Shown: piece after piece, positions 14,820 through 38,758 of the stretch
Layout of the letters: each line of letters opens with the position of its first letter
Position numbering within the stretch: the first letter of the stretch is position 1
DNA from: an uncultured Candidatus Saccharibacteria bacterium
GTDB taxonomy: Bacteria > Patescibacteriota > Minisyncoccia > Sungbacterales > HO2-52-23
DNA length: 42,894 nucleotides
Assembly: GCA_964373875.1 (NCBI GenBank)
Contig: CAYJWH010000003.1
Span: forward strand, 1-42,894
Direction: 5' to 3'
Notes under the pieces: model-generated
Told to the model about the DNA's origin: nothing
Seen by the model: only the letters and a program-made list of their open reading frames with translations
The model's database searches: none
Program-made: the position numbers and the translations under genes

Positions 14820-15413
14820 ATGTACGAACCAAAAAATTATGATCATTTGATAGGCACTCCCGGCTTTAGCGACCAGCTCCTTAAAAATCACTTTATCCTA
14901 TATCAGGGATATGTGAAAAATGTGAATACGATTTTACAGGAGCTCGAATCTATGTCCAAAGAAGGAAAAACAGGAACTCCCGCGTATGCCGAACTCCATA
15001 GAAGGTTTGGATGGGAATTTAACGGCATGCGCCTGCATGAATTGTATTTTGGCAACATGAAAAATGGGGGATCAAAACTCGATCCTGCCTCCAAACTGTG
15101 GGCGCAAATGGATAAAGATTTTGGCCCTAAACCTGCTTGGAGGAATGATTTTAAAGCGGTTGGCGCCATGCGCGGCATCGGCTGGGCTGTTTTATACTAT
15201 GATCCTGAAAGCAAAGAACTTTTTAACGTGTGGGTAAACGAGCATGACGTGGGGCATCTTGCCGGCGCCGTGCCATTGCTTGTCCTCGATATTTTTGAGC
15301 ATGCCTACGTTTTGGATTACGGGTTGAAACGCGCTGATTACATCGAGGCCTTTTTTGAAGCGATTGATTGGAGTATCGTGGAAACGAGGCTAAACCTCTA
15401 TAGCGGACTATAG
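14820..15413 (+). CDS. Fe/Mn-family superoxide dismutase; last 7 codons and the stop are supplied by REP sequence
   Basis: DIFEHAYVLDYG...DYIEAFF.AIDW C-terminal signature; NHF and RLHELYF His ligands. Confidence 0.8.
   Translation: MYEPKNYDHLIGTPGFSDQLLKNHFILYQGYVKNVNTILQELESMSKEGKTGTPAYAELHRRFGWEFNGMRLHELYFGNMKNGGSKLDPASKLWAQMDKDFGPKPAWRNDFKAVGAMRGIGWAVLYYDPESKELFNVWVNEHDVGHLAGAVPLLVLDIFEHAYVLDYGLKRADYIEAFFEAIDWSIVETRLNLYSGL
15382..15403 (-). repeat. REP copy (degenerate 5' arm), loop CTAAA
   Basis: aaacGAGG-CTAAA-CCTCTATAG; forms a doublet with 15408-15430. Confidence 0.7.
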
Positions 15414-15430
15414 AGGTTTAGCCTCTATAG
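15408..15430 (+). repeat. REP copy (perfect)
   Basis: CTATAGAGG-TTTAG-CCTCTATAG; contains the SOD stop TAG 15411-15413. Confidence 0.95.
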
Positions 15431-15440
15431 TTTATACAAA

Positions 15441-16221: not shown

Positions 16222-16223
16222 TT

Positions 16224-17800: not shown

Positions 17801-17830
17801 AATAAACAAGGAGAAACTCCTTGTTATTTT
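17801..17830 (+). terminator. Intrinsic terminator
   Basis: AATAAACAAGGAG-aaa-CTCCTTGTTATTTT. Confidence 0.8.
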
Positions 17831-17832
17831 AT

Positions 17833-17939
17833 TAACCCCGCACCTTTCTTTGTGCAGAACTTCCCAAACAAGAAAATCGCTATAAAGGTTAAAGTCAAAA
17901 AATAAGATAAATCTTGCACAAAGAAAGGTGCGGGGTTAA
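17833..17939. repeat. Family-2 TIR element, copy C (107 bp)
   Basis: TTAACCCCGCACCTTTCTTTGTGCA ... TGCACAAAGAAAGGTGCGGGGTTAA, 25-bp arms; interior homologous to copy E. Confidence 0.9.
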
Positions 17940-17984
17940 TTGAATGTTCACTACTTGTGAGGTAAAATATGGGTATAAGACGAC

Positions 17985-18032: not shown

Positions 18033-20789
18033 ATGATGCCCCCCTACAATAATTTCACAATCAAAGCCCAAGAAGTTCTAAAAAAGGCCCATGACTTGGC
18101 CCTCGAGCGTTCGCATCACCAAATTGACGTATTGCACCTGCTGGCATCCCTTGCTCTTCAAGAAGAAGGAACGGTGGACGCTATGCTTGAGAAAGTTGAG
18201 GTGGAAATCTCTGCTCTGATTGATCGTATGCTGGAGATGCTTGATGCTCTGCCAAGGGGAGCTATGATTGCCACTCCCTTGGGCCAAGTTTATTTGACGC
18301 AGGATTTGGCTAAAGTTATTGAGCAGGCGCACAAAGAAGCGGCCCAACTCAAAGACGAATTTATTTCTACCGAGCATTTATTTTTGGCGCTGCTGGAAGT
18401 TCCCTCCAAAGCCAAAGATCTGCTGGAGCGGGAAGGGCTAAATAAAGAGACGGTCCTAAAGGCGCTTGCTGAGCTTCGCGGAGGACAGCGAATCACTGAT
18501 CCGGAACCGGAATCAAAATACAACGTGCTTGAAAAATACGCGCGTAATTTGACGCGCCTGGCCCGCCAGGAGAAACTTGATCCGGTCATCGGCCGGGAAA
18601 AAGAAATCCGTCGGGTAATGCAGGTTTTGTCGCGGCGAACCAAAAACAATCCGGTCCTTATCGGAGAAGCCGGCGTGGGAAAGACGGCGATTGCCGAAGG
18701 ACTTGCCCAGCGCATAATTTCTGGCGACATACCGGAAACTTTGAAAGAAAAAGAACTTATTTCCATTGATCTTGCCGCCATTGTCGCCGGAACTAAATAT
18801 AGAGGAGAGTTTGAAGACCGGCTTAAAGCGATTCTTCGCGAGATTGAACGCGCGCAGGGCAAATATATTATTTTTATAGACGAGCTGCACACTATTGTCG
18901 GCGCGGGAGCGGCCGAGGGAGCAATTGACGCCTCCAATATGTTAAAACCCGCTCTGTCCCGAGGGGAGCTTCACGCCATCGGAGCGACAACCCTCAAAGA
19001 ATATCAGCGGTATATTGAGCGTGATCCTGCCTTGGCCAGGCGTTTTCAGCCGGTATATGTAGAAGAGCCGAGTGTTGAAGACGCGGTATCAATCTTGCGC
19101 GGACTCAAACCAAAATACGAGGCGCATCATGGGGTGCGGATAACCGATTCAGCGCTTCTTGCTTCAGCCAACCTTTCCAGCAGATACATTGCCGACAGAT
19201 TTTTACCGGACAAAGCGGTTGATCTGATGGATGAGGCGGCATCTTCCCTGCGGCTCGAGATAGACAGTTTGCCCAAAGAACTTGACGAAACCCGCCGGAA
19301 AATTATGACGCTTGAAATCGAGCGGGAGGCTTTGAATCCCGTTAGAAGTCAGCCTCGACGTGATGTCGGGCCTGCCGATCCGATTAAATCGGATCGGACT
19401 TCTAATGGGATGAAAAAAGAAACCGATAGAAAATCTAAGGAAAGATCGAAAATCATTGAAAAAGAAATTACTTCGCTTCAAGCGAGTATAAAGGGTCTTG
19501 AGGAAGACTGGAAACTTGAAAAAGACACGATTAGCGAGGTACGGCTTCTTAAAAAAGAGCTTGATACTTTCCGTCAAGAATCCGATATTGCCGAACGTGC
19601 CGGAGAATTCGGCAAAGTTGCCGAGCTTCGTTACGGCCAAGTTCCGCAGGCGGAGCAAAAACTCCGAGAGGCGGAGAAACGCTTGACCCGCTTACAAAAC
19701 TCCCGCCATCTCTTGCGCGGAGAAGTTAGCGAAGAAGACATTGCTGTCGTAGTCGCCCGCTGGACCAATATACCGGTTACCAAGATTTTGGAATCCGAAG
19801 CTTCTCGTCTGATCAAAATGGAAGACGAACTTAAGGGGCGAGTTATCGGCCAAGACGAAGCTATCCAAAAAATTGCCAATGCCGTCAGGCGTTCCCGTGC
19901 CGGAATTTCCGAGGAGAACCGTCCGATTGGATCATTTATTTTTCTTGGACCCACAGGAGTGGGAAAGACTGAGCTTGCCAAAACCCTGGCCGAATTTCTG
20001 TTCAGCGACGAGAAAGCTTTAATCCGTGTCGACATGTCCGAATATATGGAGCGCCACACCGTATCCAAATTTATCGGGTCGCCTCCGGGATATGTCGGGT
20101 ATGAGGAAGGGGGACAGCTGACCGAGCTTATCAAGCACCGGCCTTACTCGGTGGTTCTCTTTGACGAGATTGAAAAAGCGCATCCGGAAGTTTTCAATGT
20201 GCTTTTGCAGATTCTTGATAACGGCCGTCTGACCGATGCCAAGGGGCGCGTGATCAATTTCAAAAACACCATCATCATCATGACTTCAAATATCGGAGGA
20301 GAGTACGCGGCTGAAATGGGGCGGCTTGGATTTGTGTCCGGGGACGAAGATACGCGCGAGTCCAAAGAAGGCGACATGAAAGACAAAATCCGCAAAGCGC
20401 TTGAACGGCATTTCCGACCGGAGTTTTTGAACCGGCTTGATGAGATAATTATTTTCTCCTCGCTCACCCCGGCAACCATTCAGAAAATCGTGGAGATCCA
20501 GCTAGATTTGGTAAAGGAGAGAATGGCCAAAAGAGAAATTGCCGTGGCGTTTACCCCCGATCTTAAAAATTTCATTGCCGAAAAAGGATATGACGCGCAA
20601 TATGGAGCGCGGCCGTTGAAGCGCGCCATTCAAACCCACCTTCTCGACCCCATGGCGCAAAAAATTATCTGCGGAGAAATCAAAAGCGGAGACTCGGTAT
20701 TGGTGGATGTGCGAAATGGAGAGCTGGTGTTTGAGAAAAACGTTAAGCGAGTTGGTACCAGATTGCGGACGGCCGCGTCGGTTAAGTAA
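18033..20789 (+). CDS. clpB: ClpB disaggregase (two AAA+ modules) with a 24-aa insertion in the M-domain
   Basis: GEAGVGKT and GPTGVGKT Walker A motifs, N-domain repeats, coiled-coil middle domain. Confidence 0.95.
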   Translation: MMPPYNNFTIKAQEVLKKAHDLALERSHHQIDVLHLLASLALQEEGTVDAMLEKVEVEISALIDRMLEMLDALPRGAMIATPLGQVYLTQDLAKVIEQAHKEAAQLKDEFISTEHLFLALLEVPSKAKDLLEREGLNKETVLKALAELRGGQRITDPEPESKYNVLEKYARNLTRLARQEKLDPVIGREKEIRRVMQVLSRRTKNNPVLIGEAGVGKTAIAEGLAQRIISGDIPETLKEKELISIDLAAIVAGTKYRGEFEDRLKAILREIERAQGKYIIFIDELHTIVGAGAAEGAIDASNMLKPALSRGELHAIGATTLKEYQRYIERDPALARRFQPVYVEEPSVEDAVSILRGLKPKYEAHHGVRITDSALLASANLSSRYIADRFLPDKAVDLMDEAASSLRLEIDSLPKELDETRRKIMTLEIEREALNPVRSQPRRDVGPADPIKSDRTSNGMKKETDRKSKERSKIIEKEITSLQASIKGLEEDWKLEKDTISEVRLLKKELDTFRQESDIAERAGEFGKVAELRYGQVPQAEQKLREAEKRLTRLQNSRHLLRGEVSEEDIAVVVARWTNIPVTKILESEASRLIKMEDELKGRVIGQDEAIQKIANAVRRSRAGISEENRPIGSFIFLGPTGVGKTELAKTLAEFLFSDEKALIRVDMSEYMERHTVSKFIGSPPGYVGYEEGGQLTELIKHRPYSVVLFDEIEKAHPEVFNVLLQILDNGRLTDAKGRVINFKNTIIIMTSNIGGEYAAEMGRLGFVSGDEDTRESKEGDMKDKIRKALERHFRPEFLNRLDEIIIFSSLTPATIQKIVEIQLDLVKERMAKREIAVAFTPDLKNFIAEKGYDAQYGARPLKRAIQTHLLDPMAQKIICGEIKSGDSVLVDVRNGELVFEKNVKRVGTRLRTAASVK
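19338..19409. repeat. 72-bp TIR palindromic element inserted in frame in clpB
   Basis: CCCGTTAGAAGTC ... GACTTCTAATGGG (12/13 complementary), inner GATCCGAT-taa-ATCGGATC; exactly 24 codons (PVRSQPRRDVGPADPIKSDRTSNG). Confidence 0.85.
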
Positions 20790-25826: not shown

Positions 25827-26272
25827 CTATTAGAAGAAGTTTTGACAAGATCAATGGTTGTGACAGCCTCTCCTTTTTCATTTCCTGCTGTAAAAAAGAT
25901 TTGACCTTCTGTTTGTGATTTATATTTCCTTGCTCTTGTTAAATCTGCGATCATTTCATCAATAAGCCCCTTCTCCTGTATCTTCGCCAAATCCTCCCTC
26001 CACTGCTCCTGATCCTCAATCAAGAAATACCTCGCCGCCAAATCCGTATCTCCTTTCTTCAGTGCCTCAATAAATAGTTGAAGCGTCTCCTCCGGAGTAG
26101 AACCGCCGTATGGATCTTCGGCATATTGTTTCTCAAGATTTTTAAAATATTCAGTTGCCTGATACTCCGGGCTGGTTTTATTTCGCCAGTACTGGACTCC
26201 ATAAAGCGCCGCAACTCCCAAAGCCACGATTCCCAGCGCAATTATCAAAAACTTAAAAATATTTCGTAACAT
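25805..26272 (-). CDS. Membrane-anchored hypothetical protein, overlaps the start of the giant gene by 22 nt
   Basis: N-terminal TM FLIIALGIVALGVAALYG; co-oriented, probable operon. Confidence 0.55.
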   Translation of the reverse strand: MLRNIFKFLIIALGIVALGVAALYGVQYWRNKTSPEYQATEYFKNLEKQYAEDPYGGSTPEETLQLFIEALKKGDTDLAARYFLIEDQEQWREDLAKIQEKGLIDEMIADLTRARKYKSQTEGQIFFTAGNEKGEAVTTIDLVKTSSNRWKIRGL

Positions 26273-26338
26273 AGCCCCATAGTTGCAGAGCCGTATATCT
26301 CTGTAAAGTCAGCTAAAACAGGCAAGCTGTTCACAACC

Positions 26339-26347
26339 TGTGGATAA
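26339..26347 (-). promoter_or_regulatory. Perfect DnaA-box 9-mer (TGTGGATAA on the + strand)
   Basis: Exact match, abutting the REP at 26348. Confidence 0.3.
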
Positions 26348-26370
26348 CTATAGAGGTTTAGCCTCTATAG
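26348..26370 (+). repeat. REP copy (perfect) spanning the RAYT stop codon
   Basis: CTATAGAGG-TTTAG-CCTCTATAG. Confidence 0.95.
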
Positions 26371-27042
26371 TGGATCTATGTATCCAGTGAGGAGGTTGAT
26401 ATCCTTCAAGGCCCATTCTTTGGTAAAGGATTCGTATTGAGATGAGTTGTATAGTTCACCCATCACCTCTTTATTGAGAATTAGCCCATAATTATTTTGC
26501 CCAATATAGTCAGAAAAACTTGACCACGGATAGCTTTTCACAAATTTATAGGACTCGTTCCAGTTTTTTACACCCTTTTCTTTCCAGTTAGGTTCTTTAA
26601 GTTCAAGGGGATTAAGATGAATGTATCGGGTAAGGTGAGTCAGATAGGTTTCTTCATCAATATGAATCGCCTTAAATGTACCTTGGAAGAGGGAACCGCT
26701 ACGTTGATATTTTGTATTGAAATACATAGTGTAGCCGGTACCCAGTTTTTGCATAAATTTTGAAATTCCGTTGTCTACCCTCTGCCGCAGTAATAGGTGA
26801 AAGTGATTAGACATAAGGCAAAAGCTCAAAATATCTACCATCATTTCCCGTTTCCTCTTCTCTATAGAGGCTAAACCTCTATAGTAGAACTGGGAATTTA
26901 GGAGCGGCTGGGTGTCGTTGCATGCATAGAGGAGATAGAGGAATCGTTGGTAGTCGTTCTTCTTGGTAAAAGTTATCCTCTTATCAACCCCGCGATTATA
27001 CACGTGGTAGTATTGCTCATTACTTAATTCAACTTTTCGCAT
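26365..27042 (-). CDS. REP-associated tyrosine transposase (RAYT; IS200-like Y1 HUH enzyme)
   Basis: YHVYNRG, HUH motif NHFHLLL, catalytic Tyr in TRYIHLNP; flanked by REPs; ATG at 27042 preferred over GTG 27051. Confidence 0.85.
   Translation of the reverse strand: MRKVELSNEQYYHVYNRGVDKRITFTKKNDYQRFLYLLYACNDTQPLLNSQFYYRGLASIEKRKREMMVDILSFCLMSNHFHLLLRQRVDNGISKFMQKLGTGYTMYFNTKYQRSGSLFQGTFKAIHIDEETYLTHLTRYIHLNPLELKEPNWKEKGVKNWNESYKFVKSYPWSSFSDYIGQNNYGLILNKEVMGELYNSSQYESFTKEWALKDINLLTGYIDPL
26862..26884 (-). repeat. REP copy (perfect) inside the RAYT coding sequence
   Basis: CTATAGAGG-CTAAA-CCTCTATAG; on the coding strand encodes YYRGLASI. Confidence 0.95.
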
Positions 27043-27050
27043 ACCTACCA

Positions 27051-27073
27051 CTATAGAGGTTTAGCCTCTATAG
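27051..27073 (+). repeat. REP copy (perfect) 8 nt upstream of the RAYT start
   Basis: CTATAGAGG-TTTAG-CCTCTATAG. Confidence 0.95.
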
Positions 27074-27092
27074 TCAAGTCTCTATAGTCAAG
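27066..27092 (+). repeat. Tandem duplication of the REP 3' arm plus flank (CTCTATAGTCAAG x2)
   Basis: Copies at 27066-27078 and 27080-27092. Confidence 0.8.
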
Positions 27093-27131
27093 AAATTGAC
27101 ATTTTAGGGATTTCTGAATACGCTTGAATTT

Positions 27132-27929
27132 ATGGACTCGCGAATGCCCAAAGAGATACAAAAAAAGGTATTTGAGTTGACTCTGGCCGTATACCGGGTG
27201 ACTGACTTTTTTCCGCAGGGGGAGGCGCTTCGCCGGCATATCCGAGAAAAAACCAATGATGTTTTTGGCATGTGCTCGGAATATTTTTTTTCTTTTGGGG
27301 ATGAAGAAGGCGTGGTCATGCCTGCCCCGCACTGCGGATACGCCGGTGCGGGAATCCTAGCCAAAATTGAGAGTTTAAAGGGTTATATGAATATCGCGAG
27401 ATCCTTGCGATATGTAAAGCCCATAAACCTTACGATTCTTGAGCGGGAATACGACTACATCGCCAAGTTTTTTTCTCAAGAACTTGGCAAAAGAGATGAC
27501 CTGCATACCCGCCAGAATTTTGCCGAGCAAAACTCAAGCGGGCTAGCCTGGGAAGAATTTTCTAAAAGACAGCGGGAAAATGAGCATGTGTCTGATACAA
27601 AAAGCGATGTGTCCGATAAAAATAATGTGGTGGTAAACCCCGTTAGAAAGAAACACGGGATGCCGTCGGCAGAAACCCGCTTTTCTAAAAAAGAGGAAGT
27701 AGGCGGAGAAAATCAACCGGCGTTTCTTTCTAACGTGGTAAATGAGCGCCAGCAGAAAATTGTTGAATATATACAAGAGACCTCGCAGGCCAAGATTAGC
27801 GACTTCTTTAACTCTTTTGCCGATATAAGTTCAAAAACTATTCAAAGAGATTTACAAGATTTAGTAGCTAAAAATATTCTTAAAAAGGAGGGTGAAAAAC
27901 GGTGGACAATATACTCTCTAGTAAATTAA
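27132..27929 (+). CDS. Four-helix-bundle-like N-terminal domain fused to a C-terminal DeoR-type HTH
   Basis: KKVFELTLAVYRVTDFFP ... ; C-terminal RQQKIVEYIQETSQAKISDF...SSKTIQRDLQDLV. Confidence 0.6.
   Translation: MDSRMPKEIQKKVFELTLAVYRVTDFFPQGEALRRHIREKTNDVFGMCSEYFFSFGDEEGVVMPAPHCGYAGAGILAKIESLKGYMNIARSLRYVKPINLTILEREYDYIAKFFSQELGKRDDLHTRQNFAEQNSSGLAWEEFSKRQRENEHVSDTKSDVSDKNNVVVNPVRKKHGMPSAETRFSKKEEVGGENQPAFLSNVVNERQQKIVEYIQETSQAKISDFFNSFADISSKTIQRDLQDLVAKNILKKEGEKRWTIYSLVN
27325..27352. repeat. Mini family-2 hairpin CCCCGCAC-13 nt-GTGCGGG inside CDS 27132-27929
   Basis: Same terminal octamers as the 100-117-bp elements; encodes part of PAPHCGYAGAG. Confidence 0.6.
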
Positions 27930-28946: not shown

Positions 28947-29315
28947 ATGGGCTTGAAGACGTATTTGGCGACACATATAATAGATGTACAAGCTATGTTT
29001 ATTCTGTCATAAACGGAAAGAAGAAAGCCATTTTTTGGTTGTCTTTAGATATCAGTTCGGATTTATATGCTGATCTGATATCTGGAGGCAAGACAGATAG
29101 AGACCGCACGGAGAGAACTTTGACAACTTAATGACCAAACGTTTAAAAGTTTAAAGTTTAAACGTTTCAAGTTATAAGTTAATTAGAATTTTTCTGGAGA
29201 TTCAAGGTCCGGTCGGTCCGTCGTGCTTCGCACAGAGTTACCGGTTACCGGTAACTAGTTATTCTGCGCGGAGCGCGGTGGAAATGGCTTGACTCCAATT
29301 GAATTGATTATTAGT

Positions 29316-29420
29316 AAACCCCGCCCTTAACTTTGTGCAGCATTTCCCAAACAATAAAGTAGCTATAAAGATTTTGGTATAAAGCTGGTGCAGATATTGC
29401 ACAAGGTTAAGGGCGGGGTA
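29316..29420. repeat. Family-2 TIR element, copy E (105 bp)
   Basis: AACCCCGCCCTTAACTTTGTGCA ... TGCACAAGGTTAAGGGCGGGGT; interior TTCCCAAACAA.AAA...GCTATAAAG shared with copy C. Confidence 0.9.
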
Positions 29421-29631
29421 AATTAAAAACACTCATCTCGTTACACATTGTCGATGGGTAAAAAAGATGAGTGTACCACCGGAGATTCTCCTCACTATCT
29501 ATAAATGGCAGCGAGGAAGAAATAAAAGCAATTTTATTTCAGCCGAGCGAATCATTTATATAAGTCTATTTCATGCTTATATAACCATAGAAAGGGAGGA
29601 TGAGTTTCCTAAGTAAATATAGGAAAAAATT

Positions 29632-32600
29632 ATGAACATAAAATTAAAAGCGACTACGCTGGTTACTAGCATAGTCCTTTCCGGAGTAGCAGTAGTTGTG
29701 CCTTTTGCGGCAGTGGCGGACCACACAACGGCCCACACCATTGAGCAATTGTCAGCGCAAATTGTAGCTCTCCAAGCACAGCTTACGGCATTGTCCGGCG
29801 CACCAGCCGCACCTGCAGCAGGCGCGTGCTCATTCACTCGTAACCTCTCACGAGGAGTACGCGGTGATGATGTAAAATGTCTTCAAGATAAATTAATCGC
29901 CCAAGGCCATCTTGCCTCGGGCAACAATACTGCTTTCTTTGGTCCTTTGACCCAAGCAGCGGTTGCAAAATGGCAGGCAGCCAACGGAGTAGCACCGGCA
30001 GTAGGATATTTCGGTCCGCTTTCGCAGGCCAAATATAATTCGATGGTAGCGGCAGCTCCTGCAGCTCCTGCAGCTCCTGCAGCTCCTGCAGTACCGGGCG
30101 CGCCAGTAGTAGCAGTCGGTAGCGGCTTGACCGTAACTGCGTCAGCAAACCAGCCCGAAGCAGCGTTAGCGCCACTCAAAGCGGCTCGCGTGCCCATGGT
30201 AAGAGCAATTCTTACTGCTTCAGCCGATGGTGATGTAACGGTTAAATCCGTAACCGTTGAGCGTCAAGGTCTTGCGGACGATGACGCTTTTGACAGCATT
30301 GTCCTTCTTGACCAAGACGGAGTTCAAGTTGGTGATTCCAAAACTCTTAACGCTCTCAACCAAGTGAAGCTCAATGAGTCCTTTGTGGTAAAAGCGGGAA
30401 CCTCCAAGACCATTACGATCGGAGCAAATATGGTATCAACTTCGGGCAGCAATGCTGGACAGGTTGCCAAGTTTGCGATTGTTGCGGTTGACGCAGGTTC
30501 GAGCGCGGTCAATGCCAGTCTTCCGATTGCTGGAAATGGTATGACCATCAACGAATCTTTGTCCCTGGGATCAGTAGATTCTCCGACCCGAGGAGCCAGA
30601 GACCCTGGCGCCGGACGAGATCCGCTTGAAATCGGAACCAAGGGATTCATCGCCTCCGGTGTCAAATGGACTGTCGGCTCTGCCGAACCGGTTATACTTG
30701 AGCAGATGAGGTGGTATCAGTCAGGTTCTGTTGCTTCAGGAGACATTAAGAATGTCAAAGTTGTACTCAAAGATGTTGAGTACGATGCCGCAGTTTCCTC
30801 TGACGGAAAATACTACACAGCCAGATTTGGATCTGGAATAGAGTACGACAAAGGAGCCACCATTGACGCCTACATCAAGGCAGATATAGAGTCCGGTTCT
30901 AATCGAACTGTTGACTTTGATATCCAGAAGAGGACTGACATAGTAGCGCGAGGTAAGACCTTTGGTTACTATATGATCCCGGCCAATGGAACTTCTGATC
31001 CTACGGATGACACTGGAGCATTCTCCAACACCGAACCTTACTACGATGCGTATCAGCACACCATCAGCAAAGGTTCTCTTCGCGTAGAGAAATCCAATGC
31101 TGTTCCGTCGAGCAATATCGCTGAAGACGTATCCGGTACTTCGTTTGGCGCCTTTACTTTCGAAGCAAAGGGCGAGCCGGTGCAGGTATCTTCCTTCAAG
31201 GTCAACGTGATCTTTACAGGAACGGCTACCGCAACAGACATGATCAATATTTCCCTCTACGACAAAAATAACGCTGTAGTGGCAGGACCAAAAGATGGTA
31301 CTGCTTCAGGAATTACTTTTACCGACACCTGGACCGTACCGGTAGGTACCAACGTCTATACCTTGAAAGGTAAGGTTGATACCAGTGCCGCGAATAACGA
31401 CACGATTCAGTTCGCGACCAATCCGAACAGTCATATCACCGCAAAAGGTGAGACGACTGGTTTGACCATTACCGCGACGCCATCAACCGGAGTAACGGCA
31501 AATACCCAGACCGTGAAAACCGCGGCCTTGTCAGTGTCTCTGTCTACGTCTCCGGTCTCGCAAAGCGTAGTGAGAGGAGTAAATGGATTTACCATGGCCA
31601 AACTAGTCTACGATGCCACCGCCTCCGGAGAGGATCTCCGAATCACCTCGCAGGTACTCGGTTTGACTCCGGCCTCGGGTGGACAGGCAAACGACTTGAA
31701 CTCCTGTCAAATTTTTGACGGAGCAGTCGCCCTCAACACCGGTGGCAATGTGACAAACCCCGATGAGACAGCGGCCAACACCGAGGACGCGCTTACTTTC
31801 AACTTTGACACCGGCTTGGTCCTGGCCAAGGGAGTAGTGAAAGTAGTTGACGTGAAGTGTAACATCTCTAATACCCCGGCAGCAGGCGAAACTTTCCGCC
31901 TGGGCCTTACTTCAACCAACAGCGACTCGGCCGTAACTGGATTAAACACAGGAGTTACTGTAACCGAATCGGAAACCCTCAACACGGGACCGACCATGAC
32001 TATCCAGACGGCTGGTACCCTAACTGTTACCAAGGATTCTTCATCGCCCACGGTTCGCTATGGCATTGCCGGAAAGACGGGTGTGGTGATGGGGGTATTG
32101 AAAATCAACGCTACCAACGAGGACATCAAGCTTAATCAAATAGGTTTGATACTCTCTACTTCCACCGCGTCCACTTCCGACGTAGTGAAAGTAACGGTTT
32201 GGGACGGGGCTACCAAAGTCGGCGAGGCCTTCTTTACTGAAGTGACTCTCCCGTCCGGCGGTCCGATTGCCCGTGCGACTTCAACGCTTACAAGCACTTT
32301 CACAATTCCGAAAGATACCGACAAACTGCTTACCGTTAAAGCCGATCTTTCAGCCATCGGAATTTCCGAGGCGGGAACCAGAGGGCGCTTGGTTGAAGTT
32401 AACTACGACGGTGGAGGCGTCTCTACCGAAGGTGCTGGACAGTCGTCTGGTACGACAATCAACCCGACGGCGGGTGCTGTGACCGATGCCGCCGGAGTAC
32501 GTCTGGTAAGAACCGTACCGACTCTTACCAAGTTGTCAGTATTGACTTCTACTTTGTCTAACGTAGAAACGATACTCTACCGCTTTAGCGTAACTGCTGA

Positions 32601-33150
32601 CGCGGCAAGGGATGTCGCGCTTGCCAAAGTAACCTTACGGCTCGCGACTTCAGGCGCTGCTACCGATTTCTGGACGGTTAACACCGTTAACCTGTACGCC
32701 TATTCTGATGTCGGATTTAGTACGCAGGCCTACTCCAACAACCCGGTTACCCGAGGCGGATGGGCCAACCTAGCCGCGACCTCAACTGCTTTGTCTGCTG
32801 ATATTCCGATTCAGTTCAATCCGGTTAACGCTGGAGGCGCTGGTACACAGTACGAGACCTTAATTGTTCCTGCGGGACAAACCAGGTACTTTGAAGTCCG
32901 AGGTACTCCGGCATCAAGTGTTGCTGGCGACTCGCTGACCGCGACCATCAAGGGTGATACTGCGGTCCTTGTACCCGCCGCATTGGTTGGTACAGCGTCT
33001 TCAGGTGCCGCTTTCCTCAGAGACAGTGCCTTTATCTGGTCTCCGAACTCCACCACGTCTTCGGCCACCACGTCTAACGACTGGTTGAACGGATTCACGG
33101 TGGACGGTCTACCATCGACCAACATGTCCCAGAACTCATTTACGAGATAA
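29632..33150 (+). CDS. Large secreted surface (S-layer-like) protein with a PG-binding domain
   Basis: Signal peptide, coiled segment, PGBD1-like GDDVKCLQDKL...FGPLTQAAVAKWQ, (PAA)n linker, then about 1000 aa rich in T/S/A/V/G/N; visibly higher GC than its neighbours; two terminators downstream. Confidence 0.8.
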   Translation: MNIKLKATTLVTSIVLSGVAVVVPFAAVADHTTAHTIEQLSAQIVALQAQLTALSGAPAAPAAGACSFTRNLSRGVRGDDVKCLQDKLIAQGHLASGNNTAFFGPLTQAAVAKWQAANGVAPAVGYFGPLSQAKYNSMVAAAPAAPAAPAAPAVPGAPVVAVGSGLTVTASANQPEAALAPLKAARVPMVRAILTASADGDVTVKSVTVERQGLADDDAFDSIVLLDQDGVQVGDSKTLNALNQVKLNESFVVKAGTSKTITIGANMVSTSGSNAGQVAKFAIVAVDAGSSAVNASLPIAGNGMTINESLSLGSVDSPTRGARDPGAGRDPLEIGTKGFIASGVKWTVGSAEPVILEQMRWYQSGSVASGDIKNVKVVLKDVEYDAAVSSDGKYYTARFGSGIEYDKGATIDAYIKADIESGSNRTVDFDIQKRTDIVARGKTFGYYMIPANGTSDPTDDTGAFSNTEPYYDAYQHTISKGSLRVEKSNAVPSSNIAEDVSGTSFGAFTFEAKGEPVQVSSFKVNVIFTGTATATDMINISLYDKNNAVVAGPKDGTASGITFTDTWTVPVGTNVYTLKGKVDTSAANNDTIQFATNPNSHITAKGETTGLTITATPSTGVTANTQTVKTAALSVSLSTSPVSQSVVRGVNGFTMAKLVYDATASGEDLRITSQVLGLTPASGGQANDLNSCQIFDGAVALNTGGNVTNPDETAANTEDALTFNFDTGLVLAKGVVKVVDVKCNISNTPAAGETFRLGLTSTNSDSAVTGLNTGVTVTESETLNTGPTMTIQTAGTLTVTKDSSSPTVRYGIAGKTGVVMGVLKINATNEDIKLNQIGLILSTSTASTSDVVKVTVWDGATKVGEAFFTEVTLPSGGPIARATSTLTSTFTIPKDTDKLLTVKADLSAIGISEAGTRGRLVEVNYDGGGVSTEGAGQSSGTTINPTAGAVTDAAGVRLVRTVPTLTKLSVLTSTLSNVETILYRFSVTADAARDVALAKVTLRLATSGAATDFWTVNTVNLYAYSDVGFSTQAYSNNPVTRGGWANLAATSTALSADIPIQFNPVNAGGAGTQYETLIVPAGQTRYFEVRGTPASSVAGDSLTATIKGDTAVLVPAALVGTASSGAAFLRDSAFIWSPNSTTSSATTSNDWLNGFTVDGLPSTNMSQNSFTR
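30052..30090 (+). repeat. Tandem 9-bp repeat (GCAGCTCCT)x4
   Basis: Perfect copies at 30052-30087 encoding AAPAAPAAPAAP. Confidence 0.9.
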
Positions 33151-34254: not shown

Positions 34255-35037
34255 ATGATTTTGGATAAAAAGAAAATCTTTATTATTGTAATTATCGTTT
34301 TGTTGGGTCTCTCTATCTTTTTTAGAGACCGTATCTCTTCAATACTCACTTTTAGAAGCGAGCCGGAACGCGTTGTGAAATTGCCAGAGGACAAACCAAA
34401 AGAAGAAAAACTCGGAGAGGCGCTAATTTCTTCCTCCATGCCTGTTTATAAAGGAGCGGATCCCGCTCAAGTTCTTCCCGATCCGGAGGCGCTAAAGGGG
34501 CTCGACGATCAGCAGAAAGAAAATCTCTATTCGCGAATAAGGACCCACGCGGGCGAGGTCAAAGCGAATCCTGATTACTTTGCCGGATGGTTGGAGATAG
34601 GATTGCTTAAAAAAGTTATTGGAGACCTTGCCGGGGCAAGAGATGCGTGGGAATACGCAAGTTTGATTCGCCCCCAAAATTCCGTATCGTTTGCAAACCT
34701 TGGAGAACTATACTGGCGTTATCTTTCGGATTATCCGCGGTCCGAGCAGAATTTCCATAAAGCCCTCGAAAACGATCCAAAAGATGCGGATACTTATGTT
34801 TCCATTGCCGAGTTGTATCACTATTCTCTGCGGAACAAAGTCAACGAAGCCCCCGGGGTTCTACTAGACGGTCTTAAAGTTAATCCCGGAAACGATACCC
34901 TAACGCGCCGCCTCGCCTATCTTTATGAGCAAAGAGAAGAATACGCGTTAGCGCTTGAATGGTGGGAGAAGGTGCTGGCCGGAGATCCCGGCAATTTAGC
35001 TGTTGTGGCCACCATAGAAAAACTTAGGAACAGGTAA
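34255..35037 (+). CDS. Membrane-anchored TPR-repeat protein
   Basis: N-terminal TM; several 34-aa W/Y/A/P TPR-like units. Confidence 0.7.
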   Translation: MILDKKKIFIIVIIVLLGLSIFFRDRISSILTFRSEPERVVKLPEDKPKEEKLGEALISSSMPVYKGADPAQVLPDPEALKGLDDQQKENLYSRIRTHAGEVKANPDYFAGWLEIGLLKKVIGDLAGARDAWEYASLIRPQNSVSFANLGELYWRYLSDYPRSEQNFHKALENDPKDADTYVSIAELYHYSLRNKVNEAPGVLLDGLKVNPGNDTLTRRLAYLYEQREEYALALEWWEKVLAGDPGNLAVVATIEKLRNR

Positions 35038-35040
35038 TCA

Positions 35041-35063
35041 CTATAGAGGTTTAGCCTCTATAG
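35041..35063 (+). repeat. REP copy (perfect; stem extended to 13 bp by flanks ATCA/TGAT)
   Basis: CTATAGAGG-TTTAG-CCTCTATAG, 3 nt after the TPR gene stop. Confidence 0.95.
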
Positions 35064-35067
35064 TGAT

Positions 35068-36566: not shown

Positions 36567-38758
36567 TGCAAAAACCGAAAATTCTTATCTTTACCACCTC
36601 CTACCACCCATTTATAGGAGGTGCCGAAATAGCTGTCCAGGAAATTACCAGGCGCCTGAAAGAGCGCTTTGATTTTTATATTGTAACTTCCCGATTTCGC
36701 CGTGATCTGCCCAAGAGAGAAATAAGACCGGAGGGGATCGTCCTAAGAATAGGATTTGGCAATCGGCTGGATAAATATTTGCTTATCTTAGCCCCCTTTT
36801 ACTATAGAGGTTTAGCCTCTATAGTGCTGGGGGTGGATATCTCCCAGGCGTCGGTAGCCGCGGCAATTTACAAAATTCTCAATCCAAGAACTCCTTTTGT
36901 ATTAAATATCCAATTTGGCGAGAGCGAGGAGCGGCTTTCTTCCGGACGGGCAGGAATCATATCTGTTATGTTTCGTTTTATCCTCGGCCGGGCGGACTTT
37001 GTGACGGCCATCTCGAGCTATCTTCTAAATATCGCGAGAAGCTATGGATACAAAGGGCCGGCAGGGGCAGTACCTAATGGAGTAGATGTCTCAAAATTCC
37101 AAAACACAAAACACAAATCACAAACTAATCATAAAATAGTAATTACGACCGGGAGACTAGTCCGTAAAAACGGCGTCGATATTTTAATAAAGGCGATTGC
37201 CGAGATAAAAAAAAGTATCCCGGATGTTCGGCTGCATATAGTCGGCAATGGCCTGGAACGTAAGAATCTTGAGTTGCAAGTTTCAAATTACAAACTGCAA
37301 GAAAACGTAACGTTTTTAGGCAGTGTTTCCCATGAAGAAGTTCCACGGCACTTGCATGAGGCAGACCTCTTTGTCCGTCCTTCGCGCTCCGAAGGCATGG
37401 GCAACTCTTTTATAGAGGCCCTTGCGGCCGGTCTGCCAATAATCGGAACTCCGGTGGGCGGAATTTTAGATATAATTGAGGATGAAAAAACCGGGCTTTT
37501 TTGCAATCCCGAAGATCCGCGGGATTTGGCCGAGAAAATTACTCGGCTCCTGCAAGATAAAGCTCTCTCCTCCAATATAGCGGCTCAAGGCAAAAAAATG
37601 GTTGAGGATAGATTTTCTTGGGATAAAATTGCTGAAGCATACGCCGAGTTACTATCGAGGTTTAGCCTCTATAGTGAGGCTAAACCTCTGCGTATTTTGG
37701 TCGCGACTCCGTTGCTGCCGCCGCAGATAGGAGGCCCCGCTCAATATGCCAGACATTTATCCGAAGAATTTTTAAAACTTGAACAGAAAGTAAAAGTAAT
37801 TTCTTTTGGAAAATATCTGCGTTATCCAAGCGGAATCCGCCATCTGCTTTATTTATGGGCACTTGCCATACACGCGATAAAAAGCGATCTCATATTCGCG
37901 TTGGATTATACAAGCGTTGGGTTTCCGGCGGCTATAGTTTCTCTGATTTTTAGAAGGCCACTAGTGATTAGAGTTGAAGGCGATTTTCTTTGGGAAAGCT
38001 TTGTGGAGCGCGCGCGACAGGATATAATTCTAAGGGAGTTCTATAAAAATCCTCCCTCCCTCACGCCAAAAGAAAGGCTGGTTAAATGGCTTTCGGGTTG
38101 GGTGATGCGACGTGCCTCAAAACTCGTCTTTTCTTCCGAATGGAGGCGGTCTATGGTTGTTGATGCTTATAAGATTCCTTCAGAGAAAACTTTAATAATC
38201 CGCAACGTCTTTCCATATTCGGTAGCGCTAGAGCCTAGAGCCTATAGCCTAGAGCCCAGAATTATCCTTTGGGCTGGCCGGATGCTCTACCTTAAAAATC
38301 TCCAGCGCCTGATTAGGGCATTTGCAAACATGAACGTTTCATCTTACGAACTTCATCTCGTTGGGGAAGGACCGGAGAGAAAAAATCTTGAGCGCCTCAT
38401 AAACGAATATCACGCTGGGAGCCGCATAAAATTTTTTGATTCAATGGATCACGGGAAGCTCATGGACAAACTTGCTTCTTCAACGGCAGTTGTATTGCCG
38501 TCTCTTTCCGATGTCGGCCCAAATATAGTTACCGAAGCAATTAGCGCGGGCGTACCGGTAATCATGACTAAAGAATCCGGACATGCGGAGATTTTTCATC
38601 ACAAAGTTGAGTTGGTCAATCCGTTGGATGAGGGTGATTTGCGCCGGAAACTCGAAAAATTAATGAGAGAACCCGCAGAACGAGTTGTATCCGCATTCAC
38701 GATCCGACCGTGGGTTACTGCTGCCAAAGAGTGGATTAGTTTATTTAAGTCTCTATGA
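36566..38758 (+). CDS. Fused double GT4-family glycosyltransferase (two complete GT-B units joined through a REP doublet)
   Basis: Unit 1 has the EGMGNSFIEALAAGLPIIGT motif. Unit 2 begins RILVATPLLPPQIGGPAQ right after the REP doublet and has SDVGPNIVTEAISAGVPVI. Confidence 0.8.
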   Translation: MQKPKILIFTTSYHPFIGGAEIAVQEITRRLKERFDFYIVTSRFRRDLPKREIRPEGIVLRIGFGNRLDKYLLILAPFYYRGLASIVLGVDISQASVAAAIYKILNPRTPFVLNIQFGESEERLSSGRAGIISVMFRFILGRADFVTAISSYLLNIARSYGYKGPAGAVPNGVDVSKFQNTKHKSQTNHKIVITTGRLVRKNGVDILIKAIAEIKKSIPDVRLHIVGNGLERKNLELQVSNYKLQENVTFLGSVSHEEVPRHLHEADLFVRPSRSEGMGNSFIEALAAGLPIIGTPVGGILDIIEDEKTGLFCNPEDPRDLAEKITRLLQDKALSSNIAAQGKKMVEDRFSWDKIAEAYAELLSRFSLYSEAKPLRILVATPLLPPQIGGPAQYARHLSEEFLKLEQKVKVISFGKYLRYPSGIRHLLYLWALAIHAIKSDLIFALDYTSVGFPAAIVSLIFRRPLVIRVEGDFLWESFVERARQDIILREFYKNPPSLTPKERLVKWLSGWVMRRASKLVFSSEWRRSMVVDAYKIPSEKTLIIRNVFPYSVALEPRAYSLEPRIILWAGRMLYLKNLQRLIRAFANMNVSSYELHLVGEGPERKNLERLINEYHAGSRIKFFDSMDHGKLMDKLASSTAVVLPSLSDVGPNIVTEAISAGVPVIMTKESGHAEIFHHKVELVNPLDEGDLRRKLEKLMREPAERVVSAFTIRPWVTAAKEWISLFKSL
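36802..36824 (+). repeat. REP copy (perfect) inserted in frame in GT unit 1
   Basis: Codons 36800-36823 read YYRGLASI, identical to the peptide encoded by the REP inside the RAYT gene. Confidence 0.95.
37652..37674 (+). repeat. REP copy (1 mismatch: CTATCGAGG)
   Basis: At the junction of the two GT units. Confidence 0.9.
37672..37690 (-). repeat. Degenerate REP copy (GAGG-CTAAA-CCTCT) forming a doublet
   Basis: Shares TAG with the preceding copy; reads through as SEAKPL. Confidence 0.65.
38228..38255 (+). repeat. Tandem heptamer (CTAGAGC)x4, third unit CTATAGC
   Basis: Inside GT unit 2, encoding ALEPRAYSLEP. Confidence 0.85.

Follow-up and report, generated by a model that had tools for sequence, protein, structure and literature searches.

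Background

REP sequences and the RAYT proteins associated with them are the best example of mobile DNA that is maintained through vertical descent. Nearly all characterised systems come from Proteobacteria, with a few from other phyla, and in the canonical pairs TnpAREP recognises a 5' GT[AG]G tag of its REP. Patescibacteria have genomes of about 1 Mb with almost no intergenic room.

The TnpAY1 proteins fall into class 1 (IS200), whose Y motif is Y---Q, and class 2, where it is Y---NP (PMC6006769). Within class 2, subclass 2.1 is recognised by NH[YF]H, FQ, Y[IV]HLNP and a C-tail 'SS', with a median length of 238 aa; Quentin, Siguier, Chandler and Fichant (2018), using an automatic and a manual search, found no REP-like sequences near its genes (PMC6006769). 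Subclass 2.1 equals RAYT group 1, for which Bertels et al. (2017) reported only low-abundance flanking 16-mers, with 12 occurrences (PMC5581495). The TIRYT or 'TIRtron' genes of Di Nocera et al. (2013) are probably the same; certain TIRs can pair with themselves and make up small families of repeats (PMC3733652). REPs inside coding regions were described in that same paper, and in-frame REPs inside tnpAREP genes of subclass 2.4 by Quentin et al. (2018) (PMC6006769). Patescibacteria hosts are absent from the published TnpAY1/RAYT surveys, in which no mention of 'Parcubacteria' was found, and our literature search found no paper joining 'RAYT' with 'candidate phyla radiation'.

A 25-nt palindrome dispersed over the window

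The window, that is, the whole stretch of 42.9 kb analysed here, was searched with the query ACTATAGAGGNNNNNCCTCTATAGT, allowing up to three mismatches. Seven full copies of ACTATAGAGG-N5-CCTCTATAGT were found, plus three partial copies (among them 15386-15403 and 37668-37689), whereas the same search returned no copy in any of 100 dinucleotide-preserving shuffles. An earlier note on this DNA had reported such a dispersed palindrome, and its coordinates, which belong to the 23-nt core, were correct. The stem can be written CTATAGAGG-N5-CCTCTATAG, and the unit has 25 nt; the flanking 'NAC before, T after' that the note had described can be seen, and is simply the tenth base pair of this stem. 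The note had put forward about one copy per 5 kb; the density is seven copies in 42.9 kb, and three of the seven are the transposase gene's own. Coordinates are collected in Table 1.

Five copies are perfect and show the loop TTTAG on the + strand (those starting at 15407, 26347, 27050, 35040 and 36801), and a sixth, at 37651-37675, has one mismatch. All six non-internal copies share one orientation, on the G-rich strand of the window. Outside the window, the association between orientation and the sign of the GC skew was not significant (odds ratio 1.9, p = 0.23; 71 copies, 80 other stretches listed), and a lagging-strand bias is therefore not claimed. The hairpin is a perfect, bulge-free 10-bp palindrome in which the entire 25-mer is self-paired, with a folding energy of -7.9 kcal/mol (z = -6.2). 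The canonical 5' GT[AG]G tag was looked for at its foot, and neither GTAG nor GTGG occurs in ACTATAGAGGTTTAGCCTCTATAGT; the window does not, therefore, hold a canonical RAYT/REP pair, and the hairpin resembles the 'atypical', self-complementary TIR type. At Rfam gathering thresholds, the window yielded two tRNAs only and no known RNA family at the repeats.

The loci and their repeats recur at 99.6 to 100% identity in independent assemblies from three sequencing runs (L085, L166-L168), and are thus not an assembly artefact. This organism is present in the runs ERR4904390, ERR4904392 and ERR3478686. In some short assemblies, hairpins were found at contig ends. Four REP sites (the three of the RAYT gene and 35040) are also covered in other samples, and no presence/absence polymorphism was detected there. 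The identity of the repeats in these samples is evidence neither for nor against current mobility, and the description of the system as 'active-looking' is not upheld at these four sites.

Among the 80 stretches listed, the lower bounds for related MAGs range from 3 to at least 17 copies, and the predominant loop variant differs genome by genome; TTTAG, TCGGA and CGAAA are examples of such variants. JAUSFV has at least 17 copies on the 10 repeat-bearing stretches covered, and JBBTRD at least seven on seven; in both, only one of these stretches carries the transposase gene. The CTATAGAGG stem is common to many Patescibacteria lineages and even occurs in Dehalococcoidales.

Table 1. Features of the transposase gene and of the 25-nt repeat in the window
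Feature	Positions	Strand	Basis or remark
Y1/HUH tyrosine 'transposase' gene, 225 aa, RAYT/TnpAREP class	26365..27042	-	Pfam Y1_Tnp, AF2 model, match to 4ER8
5' flanking hairpin, perfect	27050..27074	+	ends 7 nt from the ATG (27042), gene strand
Sigma70-like promoter match TTGACT-N16-TATAGT (predicted function)	27050..27077	-	'TTG' plus both arms of the 5' hairpin
14-bp tandem duplication CCTCTATAGTCAAG / TCTCTATAGTCAAG (3' arm of the hairpin plus flank)	27065..27092	+	read directly
Internal in-frame hairpin, encoding Y53-YRGLASI-E61	26861..26885	-	orientation opposite to both flanking copies
3' flanking hairpin, perfect	26347..26371	+	overlaps the gene end and provides the TAG stop codon
REPIN-like doublet	15386..15431	+	5'-truncated inverted copy 15386-15403, CGG, full copy 15407-15431
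Dispersed copy	35040..35064	+	2 nt past the stop codon of the TPR gene 34255-35037
Intragenic in-frame copy (YYRGLASIV)	36801..36825	+	N-terminal GT4 domain of ORF 36566-38758
Intragenic copy plus overlapping inverted partial copy	37651..37689	+	linker between two GT4 domains

A Y1/HUH protein of the TnpAREP class at a fixed locus

The hallmarks recognised earlier in the ORF 26365-27042 are present: YHVYNRG (aa 12-18), NHFH (aa 79-82) and RYIHLNP (aa 139-145). Pfam Y1_Tnp (PF01797) matches aa 41-142 with 43.7 bits, against a cutoff of 23. The HUH motif is made of H80 and H82, the catalytic tyrosine is Y140, and N79, H80, H82, Y140, H142 and N144 are invariant in 46 homologues. Invariance of the HUH and Tyr residues in such diverse homologues argues, at the level of sequence, for retained nuclease and ligase chemistry. 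The start MRKVEL is shared with the nearest database relative, P0001.

Sequence searches of the PDB gave weak matches with the family profile (ISDra2 TnpA, E = 0.004; 4ER8, E = 0.18) and spurious RPA matches only with single-sequence phmmer, so that structure prediction followed by Foldseek was needed for a ranking. In the AF2 model (pLDDT 86, pTM 0.84) the C-terminal 80 aa or so are helical, and the sole low-confidence loop is formed by aa 51-60, which contain the peptide of the internal hairpin. The best PDB match of the model is 4ER8, the TnpAREP-REP complex (E = 2.3e-5, TM 0.66); the IS200-family TnpAs of ISDra2 and IS608 match as well, behind 4ER8. The Y motif, YIHLNP, is that of class 2 (Y---NP). 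Motif and structural match together support the view, already taken in the earlier note, that this Y1/HUH protein belongs to the TnpAREP/RAYT class and not with the IS200 TnpAs.

Its four motifs (NHFH, LFQG, YIHLNP and YPWSSFSDY, in 225 aa) fit only subclass 2.1 (PMC6006769, Table 1). Judged by published motif signatures, the protein thus matches subclass 2.1, or Bertels group 1, and is TIRYT-like. The designation of gene and repeat as a RAYT pair holds for the flanking and dispersed repeat; it does not extend to the missing GT[AG]G tag or to the NCBIfam REP_Tyr_transpos equivalog (NF047646), which scores 42.6 bits, below its cutoff of 80. A C-terminal HTH-like domain (Bac_DnaA_C, HTH_23, HTH_28) was not detected, Pfam giving Y1_Tnp only at E <= 0.01.

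The window contains a single transposase gene. It lies in a collinear block of six genes (PG-binding, NTP-transferase, DeoR, RAYT, hyp155 and LTD) that is shared with CP066690.1 (L169), a complete genome of Ca. Sungbacteria, and with L171; the organism is a member of the Patescibacteria/CPR, in agreement with the CPR-like host proposed earlier. Across the block, identity is 58 to 63% for the RAYT, compared to 43 to 69% for its neighbours. The fixed place in a collinear block indicates vertical inheritance and not an IS200 insertion sequence: the gene is domesticated and vertically inherited at a fixed locus. In plasmid and phage collections, only relatives of at most 35% identity were found, and no vector for horizontal spread was identified. 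Short contigs are frequent among the database contigs that carry the gene.

Three hairpins at one gene

The gene has the same hairpin three times: ahead of the ATG at a distance of 7 nt, within the reading frame at aa 53-61, and over the stop codon. The gene is therefore bracketed by the repeat that it also contains and that is dispersed across the window, as had been claimed. The internal copy had been called a third perfect copy. It is indeed in frame, but it has one mismatch, at the outermost base, and its + strand loop, CTAAA, shows that it is inverted relative to the other six full copies. Its orientation and frame are the sole combination free of stop codons.

A 5' hairpin placed 7 to 10 nt ahead of the ATG is also present in five relatives (L041, L169, L171, L172 and L175). 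The two units of the 14-bp tandem duplication (27065-27078 and 27079-27092) are also found in the strain variants L085 and L168. Only one promoter-like match occurs in the interval 26200-27300, TTGACT-N16-TATAGT, and a TTG stands before the 5' hairpin in six of the six clade genes that keep a perfect internal copy. We infer that the 5' copy forms a promoter-like, near-consensus site.

Hairpins in the relatives of the gene

In 63 of 78 related genes (81%), the 5' and 3' flanks have in common an exact match of at least 12 nt. The internal window shares such a match with a flank in 30 of the 78 (38%), compared to about 2% of control windows. At 22 loci, representing about 18 different hairpin sequences, the internal hairpin is the same as the flanking one. 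Its position is fixed across the family, 12 to 21 residues upstream of CLMPNH and before the HUH motif. The 5', internal and 3' loops covary in the window and in L041, L169, L171, L172 and L175, three of these relatives being syntenic orthologues. The internal copy belongs to the family as a whole, keeps one fixed position and covaries with the copies on the flanks.

The dipeptides that follow YRG in 72 of 120 homologues are translations of observed loop variants. At this same site, homologous hairpins are read in different frames across relatives, which indicates that it is the DNA that is conserved, and not the peptide. In L004 and L019 the internal copy has decayed, and in about 60% of the wider family none can be recognised, so that it is not essential. 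The family comprises 551 clusters at 50% identity (E <= 1e-30).

Dispersal of the flanking hairpin away from the gene is scarce near these relatives: 10 copies were counted in 268 kb, and only six of 32 loci have any. No claim of REP dispersal is therefore made for the whole family, and for much of it the hairpins may serve the gene alone. The covarying internal copy, the syntenic vertical inheritance and the promoter-like 5' site had all been overlooked in the earlier note.

Copies in other genes

An Fe/Mn superoxide dismutase gene (14820-15413), whose Sod_Fe_C domain ends at residue 190 of 197, takes its final residues and its stop codon from the doublet. The doublet folds as a hairpin of 18 bp or more (-19.9 kcal/mol, z = -9), and a comparable full doublet, with a spacer of 3 nt, is present in L063; doublets also occur in L098 and L119. 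The copy behind the TPR gene is identical in two other samples; a separate terminator-like hairpin lies downstream of it.

The two copies in the glycosyltransferase ORF are missing from all 54 aligned homologues. The first falls in a hypervariable segment, where the window protein is shorter than its homologues, so that it is not a simple insertion. Because this segment is hypervariable and the best homologues are only 60 to 61% identical, insertion boundaries and a target duplication are not definable. In the second, the single mismatch, A to C (TAG to TCG), abolishes an in-frame stop codon. The GT4-GT4 fusion is also found in the relatives P0121, P0122, P0130 and P0150, which indicates that the open reading frame through this copy is real. 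Fusion of two glycosyltransferase genes by the REP at 37651 was considered and rejected, since relatives without the repeat have the same fusion. Copies within coding regions had been thought undescribed; they are already in PMC3733652 and, in frame within tnpAREP, in PMC6006769.

A proposed system and its alternatives

We put at about three in four the probability that these observations reflect a REP/RAYT-type system of a Sungbacteria-related Patescibacteria genome, in which a cognate 25-nt hairpin is paired with one domesticated HUH/Y1 endonuclease gene that is passed on vertically. If the protein works like E. coli TnpAREP and the TnpAs of IS608 and ISDra2, it would bind the hairpin folded on single-stranded DNA; His80 and His82 would hold the metal, and Tyr140 would cut and rejoin beside the hairpin. 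Such cutting and rejoining could copy or replace hairpins, both at new and at existing sites. This would account for the dispersal, for the doublets and truncated copies, and for the match of the gene's three copies to each other and, where comparable, to the other copies of the genome. With scant intergenic room, insertions would survive where they coincide with a stop codon or where a tolerant protein loop can be read through them in the one open frame. The 5' copy may double as a promoter (TTGACT-N16-TATAGT) giving a leaderless mRNA, and a protein binding its own 5' hairpin would exert feedback on its own expression.

A further proposal is made tentatively, as one that we think somewhat more apt to fail than to hold: the family would keep an in-frame 'reference copy' of its own target hairpin, continually overwritten or converted to match the promoter, stop-codon and other copies. 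If so, the enzyme, or recombination triggered by it, would act on its own gene, and a surface loop of the protein would be translated directly from whatever target sequence is current. Constraint on what the stem encodes (Y-R-G ... S-I) would be part of the reason why CTATAGAGG is so widely shared, and this self-referential coupling of enzyme and substrate would offer a natural system for the co-evolution of REP/RAYT specificity. Such self-reference was not found described in the literature searched on RAYT/REPIN systems.

Among the alternatives, the most resistant holds that the hairpins are regulatory elements (promoter or operator, terminator, mRNA stabiliser) and the Y1 protein a hairpin-binding factor that no longer moves DNA. 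The gene's three copies would form an autoregulatory module, and the dispersed copies would put other genes under the same control. The near-consensus promoter derived from the 5' copy and conserved in the clade is in line with this, as are the copies at or just past the stop codons of the SOD, TPR and RAYT genes, the stability of copy positions between samples, and the restriction of hairpins to the gene in most relatives. However, none of the 46 diverse homologues departs from the catalytic HUH and Tyr residues, and the lineage-specific in-frame copies inside unrelated genes have no apparent regulatory role. Moreover, truncated copies, doublets and the tandemly duplicated arm have the appearance of DNA-processing products, and loops that change together in all copies require copying at the DNA level. 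We judge this explanation unlikely; it overlaps with the REP/RAYT-type system proposed above and does not exclude it.

Far less probable is an autonomous insertion sequence of the IS200/IS605 type, of which the flanking hairpins would be the left and right ends, and the solitary hairpins footprints or solo ends. There are indeed hairpins at both ends of a unit of about 730 bp, and in the window, as in IS200, these end hairpins are direct repeats whose loops read alike on one strand; most relatives have the hairpin only around the gene, and many of the database contigs that carry the gene are short. This reading is largely refuted by the six-gene synteny, in which the gene diverges at the rate of neighbours that are 43 to 69% identical. 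It is further opposed by the Y---NP motif, not IS200's Y---Q, by a predicted structure nearer to TnpAREP than to the IS608 and ISDra2 TnpAs, and by the single copy in the window. Both ends are the same palindrome instead of an LE that differs from the RE, several genomes have more solitary copies than genes, and plasmids or phages carry only relatives of at most 35% identity.

Next to no probability is given to the idea that the internal copy amounts to no more than a conserved peptide motif (YRG..SI), encoded by a palindrome by chance and unrelated to the repeats outside. YRG..S[IVL] does occur in 72 of 120 homologues and is retained, as FYKGLGSLD and RYRGFASVE, in genes whose DNA palindrome has decayed, but covariation between internal and flanking copies refutes the idea. 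In other subfamilies this site reads FSETEPPN, NVGGLASRI, IEVQPQY, NVESSTLNM or yet other peptides, each encoded by the gene's own flanking hairpin; homologous hairpins are read in different frames, the unrelated glycosyltransferase reads the same 25-mer as the same peptide, and the segment is the sole low-confidence loop of the predicted model.

A REP/RAYT-type system at this locus would extend the pairing of hairpins with domesticated Y1 genes to Patescibacteria, and would show how repeats fit into a gene-dense genome, by coinciding with stop codons and by lying, in the only open frame, within protein loops that tolerate them. It would connect such repeats with a subclass that is the largest of TnpAY1 apart from IS200, has been reported REP-free and has no known function. 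In-frame REPs as such are already published; the present case differs in the family-fixed internal copy that covaries with the flanks, and in the association of hairpins with a subclass 2.1-like gene. The fixed in-frame copy would document, from within thousands of metagenomic genes, how REP and RAYT have co-evolved, and its concerted change with the flanks suggests testable ideas on autoregulation and repeat homogenisation. For the annotation of CPR genomes, peptides encoded by REPs, such as YRGLASI, are to be expected, since these hairpins terminate genes, become part of ORFs and, in some short assemblies, lie at contig ends.

Comparison with known systems

IS200/IS605 TnpAs (IS608, ISDra2) share the HUH/Y1 fold with the window protein, and their recognition of single-stranded DNA hairpins may serve as a mechanistic model for cleavage and strand transfer here. 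IS200 transposases are class 1 (Y---Q), about 150 aa long, multicopy and horizontally mobile, with distinct LE and RE; none of this applies to the window gene. Rickettsia palindromic elements and intragenic REPs (Di Nocera et al., 2013) offer another likeness, as the excerpted account has in-frame palindromes tolerated in a small, gene-dense genome, where they encode extra peptide segments. In that excerpt, RPE-1 is a longer palindromic insert and no transposase gene is linked to RPEs, whereas the element of the window has 25 nt, one usable frame and orientation, and a linked Y1 gene.

Subclass 2.4 genes (Cyanobacteria/Bacteroidetes) also carry their cognate REP in frame, in a peripheral variable region, with the frame intact. 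In the family studied here, however, the site is upstream of the HuH motif, fixed family-wide, and evolves in concert with the flanks; the subclass 2.4 motifs NH[IFV]H, WQ and YIxNNP also differ from those of the window protein.

E. coli TnpAREP/RAYT with its REP/BIME (REPtron; subclass 2.2; 4ER8) is the best structural match. Both proteins have HUH and a single Tyr, both genes are chromosomal and single-copy (here, in the window) with cognate flanking hairpins, and both hairpins are dispersed at gene ends and form inverted REPIN-like doublets. Sequence similarity is marginal (profile E = 0.18; NCBIfam below cutoff). In contrast to the E. coli REP, the window hairpin pairs perfectly over 10 bp, is free of bulges and lacks the 5' GTAG tag; at its C-terminus the protein has about 80 aa more, which form a helical domain, and the gene contains an in-frame copy.

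Closest by motifs are the subclass 2.1/TIRYT genes, which resemble the window gene in length (about 225 to 238 aa), in NH[YF]H, FQ, Y[IV]HLNP and a WSS tail, in low copy number and in a bracketing repeat pair. Compared to the published reports on subclass 2.1, 81% of 78 relatives are bracketed here by one palindrome, this palindrome is dispersed in the CTATAGAGG clade (at least 17 copies in one MAG), and the gene contains an in-frame copy and, by Pfam, no HTH/DnaA-like C-terminal domain. The operational definition of a RAYT/REPtron (Nunvar, 2010; Bertels and Rainey, 2011; Bertels, 2017) is flanking on both sides by a repeat over-represented in the genome. Tens to hundreds of repeat copies per genome also belong to this definition; the 42.9 kb of the window have seven full copies, the lower bounds in related MAGs are 3 to at least 17, and most other relatives show no dispersal nearby. 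Perfect copies at 27050 and 26347 flank the gene of the window, and four further full copies lie in the 42.9 kb; as in a RAYT/REPtron, the gene is single-copy in the window and vertically inherited, with six-gene synteny and neighbour-like divergence.

Hairpin copies in the window

A search for ACTATAGAGG-N5-CCTCTATAGT over the 42,894-bp window, allowing up to 3 mismatches, gave seven matches, compared to none in any of 100 dinucleotide-preserving shuffles. The observation of a repeat around a Y1 ORF, reported in an earlier note made from the sequence alone, is correct. An assembly artefact, which the note had named as a possible pitfall, is excluded, as independent assemblies from three sequencing runs contained the same loci at 99.6 to 100% identity, with identical repeats. 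Folded as single-stranded DNA, the 25-mer pairs over 10 bp around a 5-nt loop (-7.9 kcal/mol, z -6.2). Orientation was biased in the window (6/6), and not significantly so elsewhere. The canonical REP tag GT[AG]G is absent from the window hairpin.

Features of the window
Feature	Position	Remark
Hairpin copy	15407	Perfect, + strand loop TTTAG
Hairpin copy (3')	26347	Perfect, + strand loop TTTAG
Hairpin copy (internal)	26861	1 mismatch, at outermost base; loop complementary, hence opposite orientation
Hairpin copy (5')	27050	Perfect, + strand loop TTTAG
Hairpin copy	35040	Perfect, + strand loop TTTAG
Hairpin copy	36801	Perfect, + strand loop TTTAG
Hairpin copy	37651	1 mismatch
Partial hairpin copy	15386-15403	Adjoins full copy
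Partial hairpin copy	37668-37689	Adjoins full copy
Doublet	15380-15433	Folds into longer hairpin, -19.9 kcal/mol
14-bp tandem duplication	27065-27092	Arm and flank
Y1 gene	26365-27042 (-)	225 aa
Sigma70-like match	27077 to 27050	Gene strand
GT4-GT4 fusion ORF	36566-38758	730 aa
NifU-like short ORF (MQQQIEQALEEIRPMLARHLGNIEFVNF...)	15441-15650	Starts 9 nt after the 15407-15431 hairpin; under 90-aa listing threshold
~124-nt element	17821-17944, 29304-29427	Two copies, 70% identical
ClpB gene	18033-20789	
PG-binding protein gene	29632-33150	
AAATTAGTGCG(C/G)GGGC-type motif	14647-14697, 14751-14790, 16039-16078, 16132-16182	Two nested inverted pairs
HtrA-like protease gene	16152-17474	
Palindrome TTCCATTA(G/A)(G/T)ATACGATCGCAT(C/T)CTAATGGAA	271-313, 970-1012	Copies 699 bp apart
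9-nt tandem repeat GCAGCTCCT	30043-30105	About 5-7 units, within PG-binding protein gene
tRNA genes	2108-2180, 7352-7422	Only Rfam matches

Five of the six hairpin frames contain stop codons, and the sole open frame, (Y)YRGLASI, is used both by the internal copy of the Y1 gene and by the 36801 copy, in a GT4 glycosyltransferase. The 37651 copy occupies the linker between the domains of a GT4-GT4 fusion, and its one mismatch, by turning TAG into TCG, is precisely what abolishes the stop codon in its frame. The SOD gene takes its stop codon from the 15407 copy and the Y1 gene from the 26347 copy, and the 35040 copy begins 2 nt past the stop codon of a TPR gene. Both GT4 copies are missing from all 54 aligned homologues, which makes them lineage-specific acquisitions. 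The fusion of the two GT4 domains is itself ancestral, since it is shared with several relatives (P0121, P0122, P0130 and P0150), and the repeat was rejected as its cause.

A resident gene for a TnpAREP-like protein

The Y1 protein shares its MRKVEL start with its nearest database relative, P0001. The Pfam profile Y1_Tnp gives it 43.7 bits (cutoff 23), and the NCBIfam equivalog REP_Tyr_transpos 42.6 bits, which is under the cutoff of 80. A confident AlphaFold2 model (46 homologues, pLDDT 86, pTM 0.84) found its top PDB match in 4ER8, the E. coli TnpAREP-REP hairpin complex (E 2.3e-5, target TM 0.66), with the TnpA proteins of ISDra2 and IS608 ranking behind. Residues N79, H80, H82, Y140, H142 and N144 were invariant in the family alignment. 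The family is large, with 551 clusters (50% identity) at E <= 1e-30, or 7,631 when the threshold is E <= 1e-10. When the motifs were read against Table 1 of Quentin et al. 2018 (PMC6006769), subclass 2.1 alone fitted the combination of NHFH, LFQG, YIHLNP, C-terminal WSS and length. This subclass is Bertels group 1, and it probably corresponds to the TIRYTs of Di Nocera et al. 2013 (PMC3733652). Class 1, that of IS200 transposases, is excluded by the Y---NP motif. The REP/RAYT reading of the earlier note is essentially right.

In the window, genes for an LTD protein and a 155-aa protein precede the Y1 gene, followed by divergent DeoR-HTH, NTP-transferase and PG-binding protein genes. This order is collinear with L169/L170, from a complete Ca. 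Sungbacteria genome (CP066690.1), and with a further locus, L171. Across the block, protein identity was 43 to 69% for the neighbours and 58 to 63% for the Y1 protein. Collinearity, together with a divergence like that of the neighbours, shows that the gene was passed on vertically at one locus. On this comparison the Y1 gene is resident, and the reading as an insertion sequence is largely ruled out. Known plasmids and phages contained relatives of the Y1 protein at 35% identity or less only.

The genomes of L175 and L171 each have a second, divergent Y1 paralogue (L175 16241-16834, GCA_016188485.1; L171 3281-4045). The one in L175 has a 37-nt palindrome of its own, CCCAAGCCAGGCTTAGGTTACCTAAGCCTGGCTTGGG, on either side, so that different Y1 genes of one genome have different cognate hairpins. 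In L172 (4407-12201; relative P0009), NucS-like, N6/N4 methyltransferase, DUF5681 and terminase genes are found a few kb away from the Y1 gene and may represent a prophage or defence island beside the conserved block.

An internal copy at a fixed site

Among 120 aligned homologues, the internal site carries the conserved peptide QFYYRG[LFS][AT]SI, with quite different peptides in other subgroups. The nucleotide loci show each of these peptides to be encoded by the hairpin that flanks the same gene. Thus, L081 has TGTGTGAGG-CTTAG-CCTCACACA at both ends and a version with 3 mismatches internally, and L083 has TTCGGAG-ACCGAAC-CTCCGAA upstream, internally (FSETEPPN) and across the stop codon. The flanks were compared in 78 distinct genes for which both were available, taken from a metagenome scan and from loci fetched before. 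An exact match of at least 12 nt was common to the 5' and 3' flanks in 63 genes (81%), and to the internal window and a flank in 30 (38%); for control windows from other parts of these genes, a flank was matched in 5 and 6 out of 268. Internal and flanking copies agreed at 0 to 2 mismatches in 22 loci, representing about 18 different hairpin sequences, with the exception of one 47-nt doublet differing at 5 positions.

The site is fixed at 12 to 21 residues (mostly 13 to 16) ahead of CLMPNH, and homologous hairpins there are translated in different frames, which indicates that the DNA element is maintained and not the peptide. In the model, the hairpin-encoded residues 51-60 are the sole internal stretch of low confidence and lie in the loop that connects helix 28-40 to strand 69-76. 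The internal copy has decayed in two loci, L004 and L019, and cannot be recognised in about 60% of the family at large; it is therefore not indispensable. In two relatives the internal in-frame insert is instead a 47-54-nt doublet of two inverted hairpins, REPIN-like (L098 6177-6223, L119 6183-6236), and some genes (L089, L116, L104) have extra in-frame copies close to the C-terminus.

All six CTATAGAGG clade genes with a perfect internal copy share the stem, and their three loops change together; syntenic orthology was shown for three of them (window, L169, L171).

Loops of the gene-associated copies, in gene sense
Locus	5'	Internal	3'
Window	CTAAA	TTTAG	CTAAA
L041	CTAAA	CTTAG	CTTAG
L169	TCGGA	TCCGA	TCGGA
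L171	CGAAA	TTTCG	TTTCG
L172	CTAAG	CTTAG	CTTAG
L175	TTTCG	TTTCG	CGAAA

The dipeptide following YRG, present in 72 of the 120 homologues, was LA (30), FA (14), LT (9), ST (6), SA (3) or PT (3). With the exception of ST, these correspond to loop variants of dispersed or gene-flanking copies, translated in the stop-free orientation. The joint changes imply a copying process that keeps the three copies alike, which would be gene conversion or enzyme-mediated replacement.

The sole sigma70-like match in 26200-27300, TTGACT-N16-TATAGT, is built from 'TTG' and both arms of the 5' hairpin and stops 7 nt short of the ATG. In the same six genes, 'TTG' stands ahead of the 5' hairpin (TTGACT, TTGCAA or TTGCTC) and the ATG 7 to 10 nt past it, mostly without a Shine-Dalgarno sequence. 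From this arrangement we infer a leaderless Y1 transcript, whose promoter would be the enzyme's own putative binding site.

The same stem in other genomes

When GTDB species representatives were scanned for the exact pattern CTATAGAGG-N5-CCTCTATAG, at least 80 stretches were found to carry it. Among the matches listed, most were from Patescibacteria (Sungbacteria, Yanofskybacteria, Saccharibacteria, Peribacteria, Parcubacteria) and some from Dehalococcoidales; a Y1 gene was present in only 3 of the 80 listed, so that solitary hairpins outnumber genes. One loop variant predominates per genome: CTAAG/CTTAG in JACPBG and JAUSFV, TTTAG in JBBTRD, TTAAA/TTTAA in JBBTVQ and CAZVRG, and CGAAA/TTTCG in CAYIBQ and LCKU01. 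Distant copies were found in 6 of the 32 relatives having at least 4 kb outside the gene, 10 copies altogether over 268 kb. Demonstrated dispersal is limited to the CTATAGAGG clade and a few others and does not extend to the entire family.

In stretches from Dehalococcoidales MAGs (L014, L018, L020, L035, L039, L055, L057), the stem forms part of a longer element that is conserved (GGGGAGAGAAGT-hairpin-GGTGGGTATTGG; loops TGACA/TTACA), and no Y1 gene was found there. This element may be a separate repeat family with the same stem.

Other repeats in the window

The ~124-nt element has 31-32-nt inverted arms (AACCCCGC.CTT..TTTGTGCA ... TGCACAA..AAGG.GCGGGGTT) and a conserved 58-nt centre. The ClpB gene has one copy upstream, the PG-binding protein gene the other; the element may be an operator/promoter cassette common to both genes or else another kind of small mobile element. 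The AAATTAGTGCG(C/G)GGGC-type motifs bracket the SOD/NifU-like cluster, ahead of the HtrA-like protease gene, and look like a shared binding site of a putative regulator.

Comparison with known systems

The earlier note took copies inside coding regions to be undescribed; this claim does not hold, as in-frame intragenic REPs already appear in Di Nocera et al. 2013 (PMC3733652). Quentin et al. 2018 describe REPs in frame within tnpAREP genes of subclass 2.4, and report that their automatic and manual searches gave none close to genes of subclass 2.1. For Bertels group 1, Bertels et al. 2017 (PMC5581495) give low-abundance flanking 16-mers only. A literature search found no paper joining RAYTs with the candidate phyla radiation, later TnpAREP papers included. 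Relative to these systems, the novelty lies in the host group, in hairpin repeats tied to a subclass 2.1-like Y1 protein, in a position-fixed internal copy that precedes the HUH motif, evolves jointly with its flanking counterparts and equals the genome's dispersed copies where comparison was possible, and in a predicted promoter carried by the hairpin.
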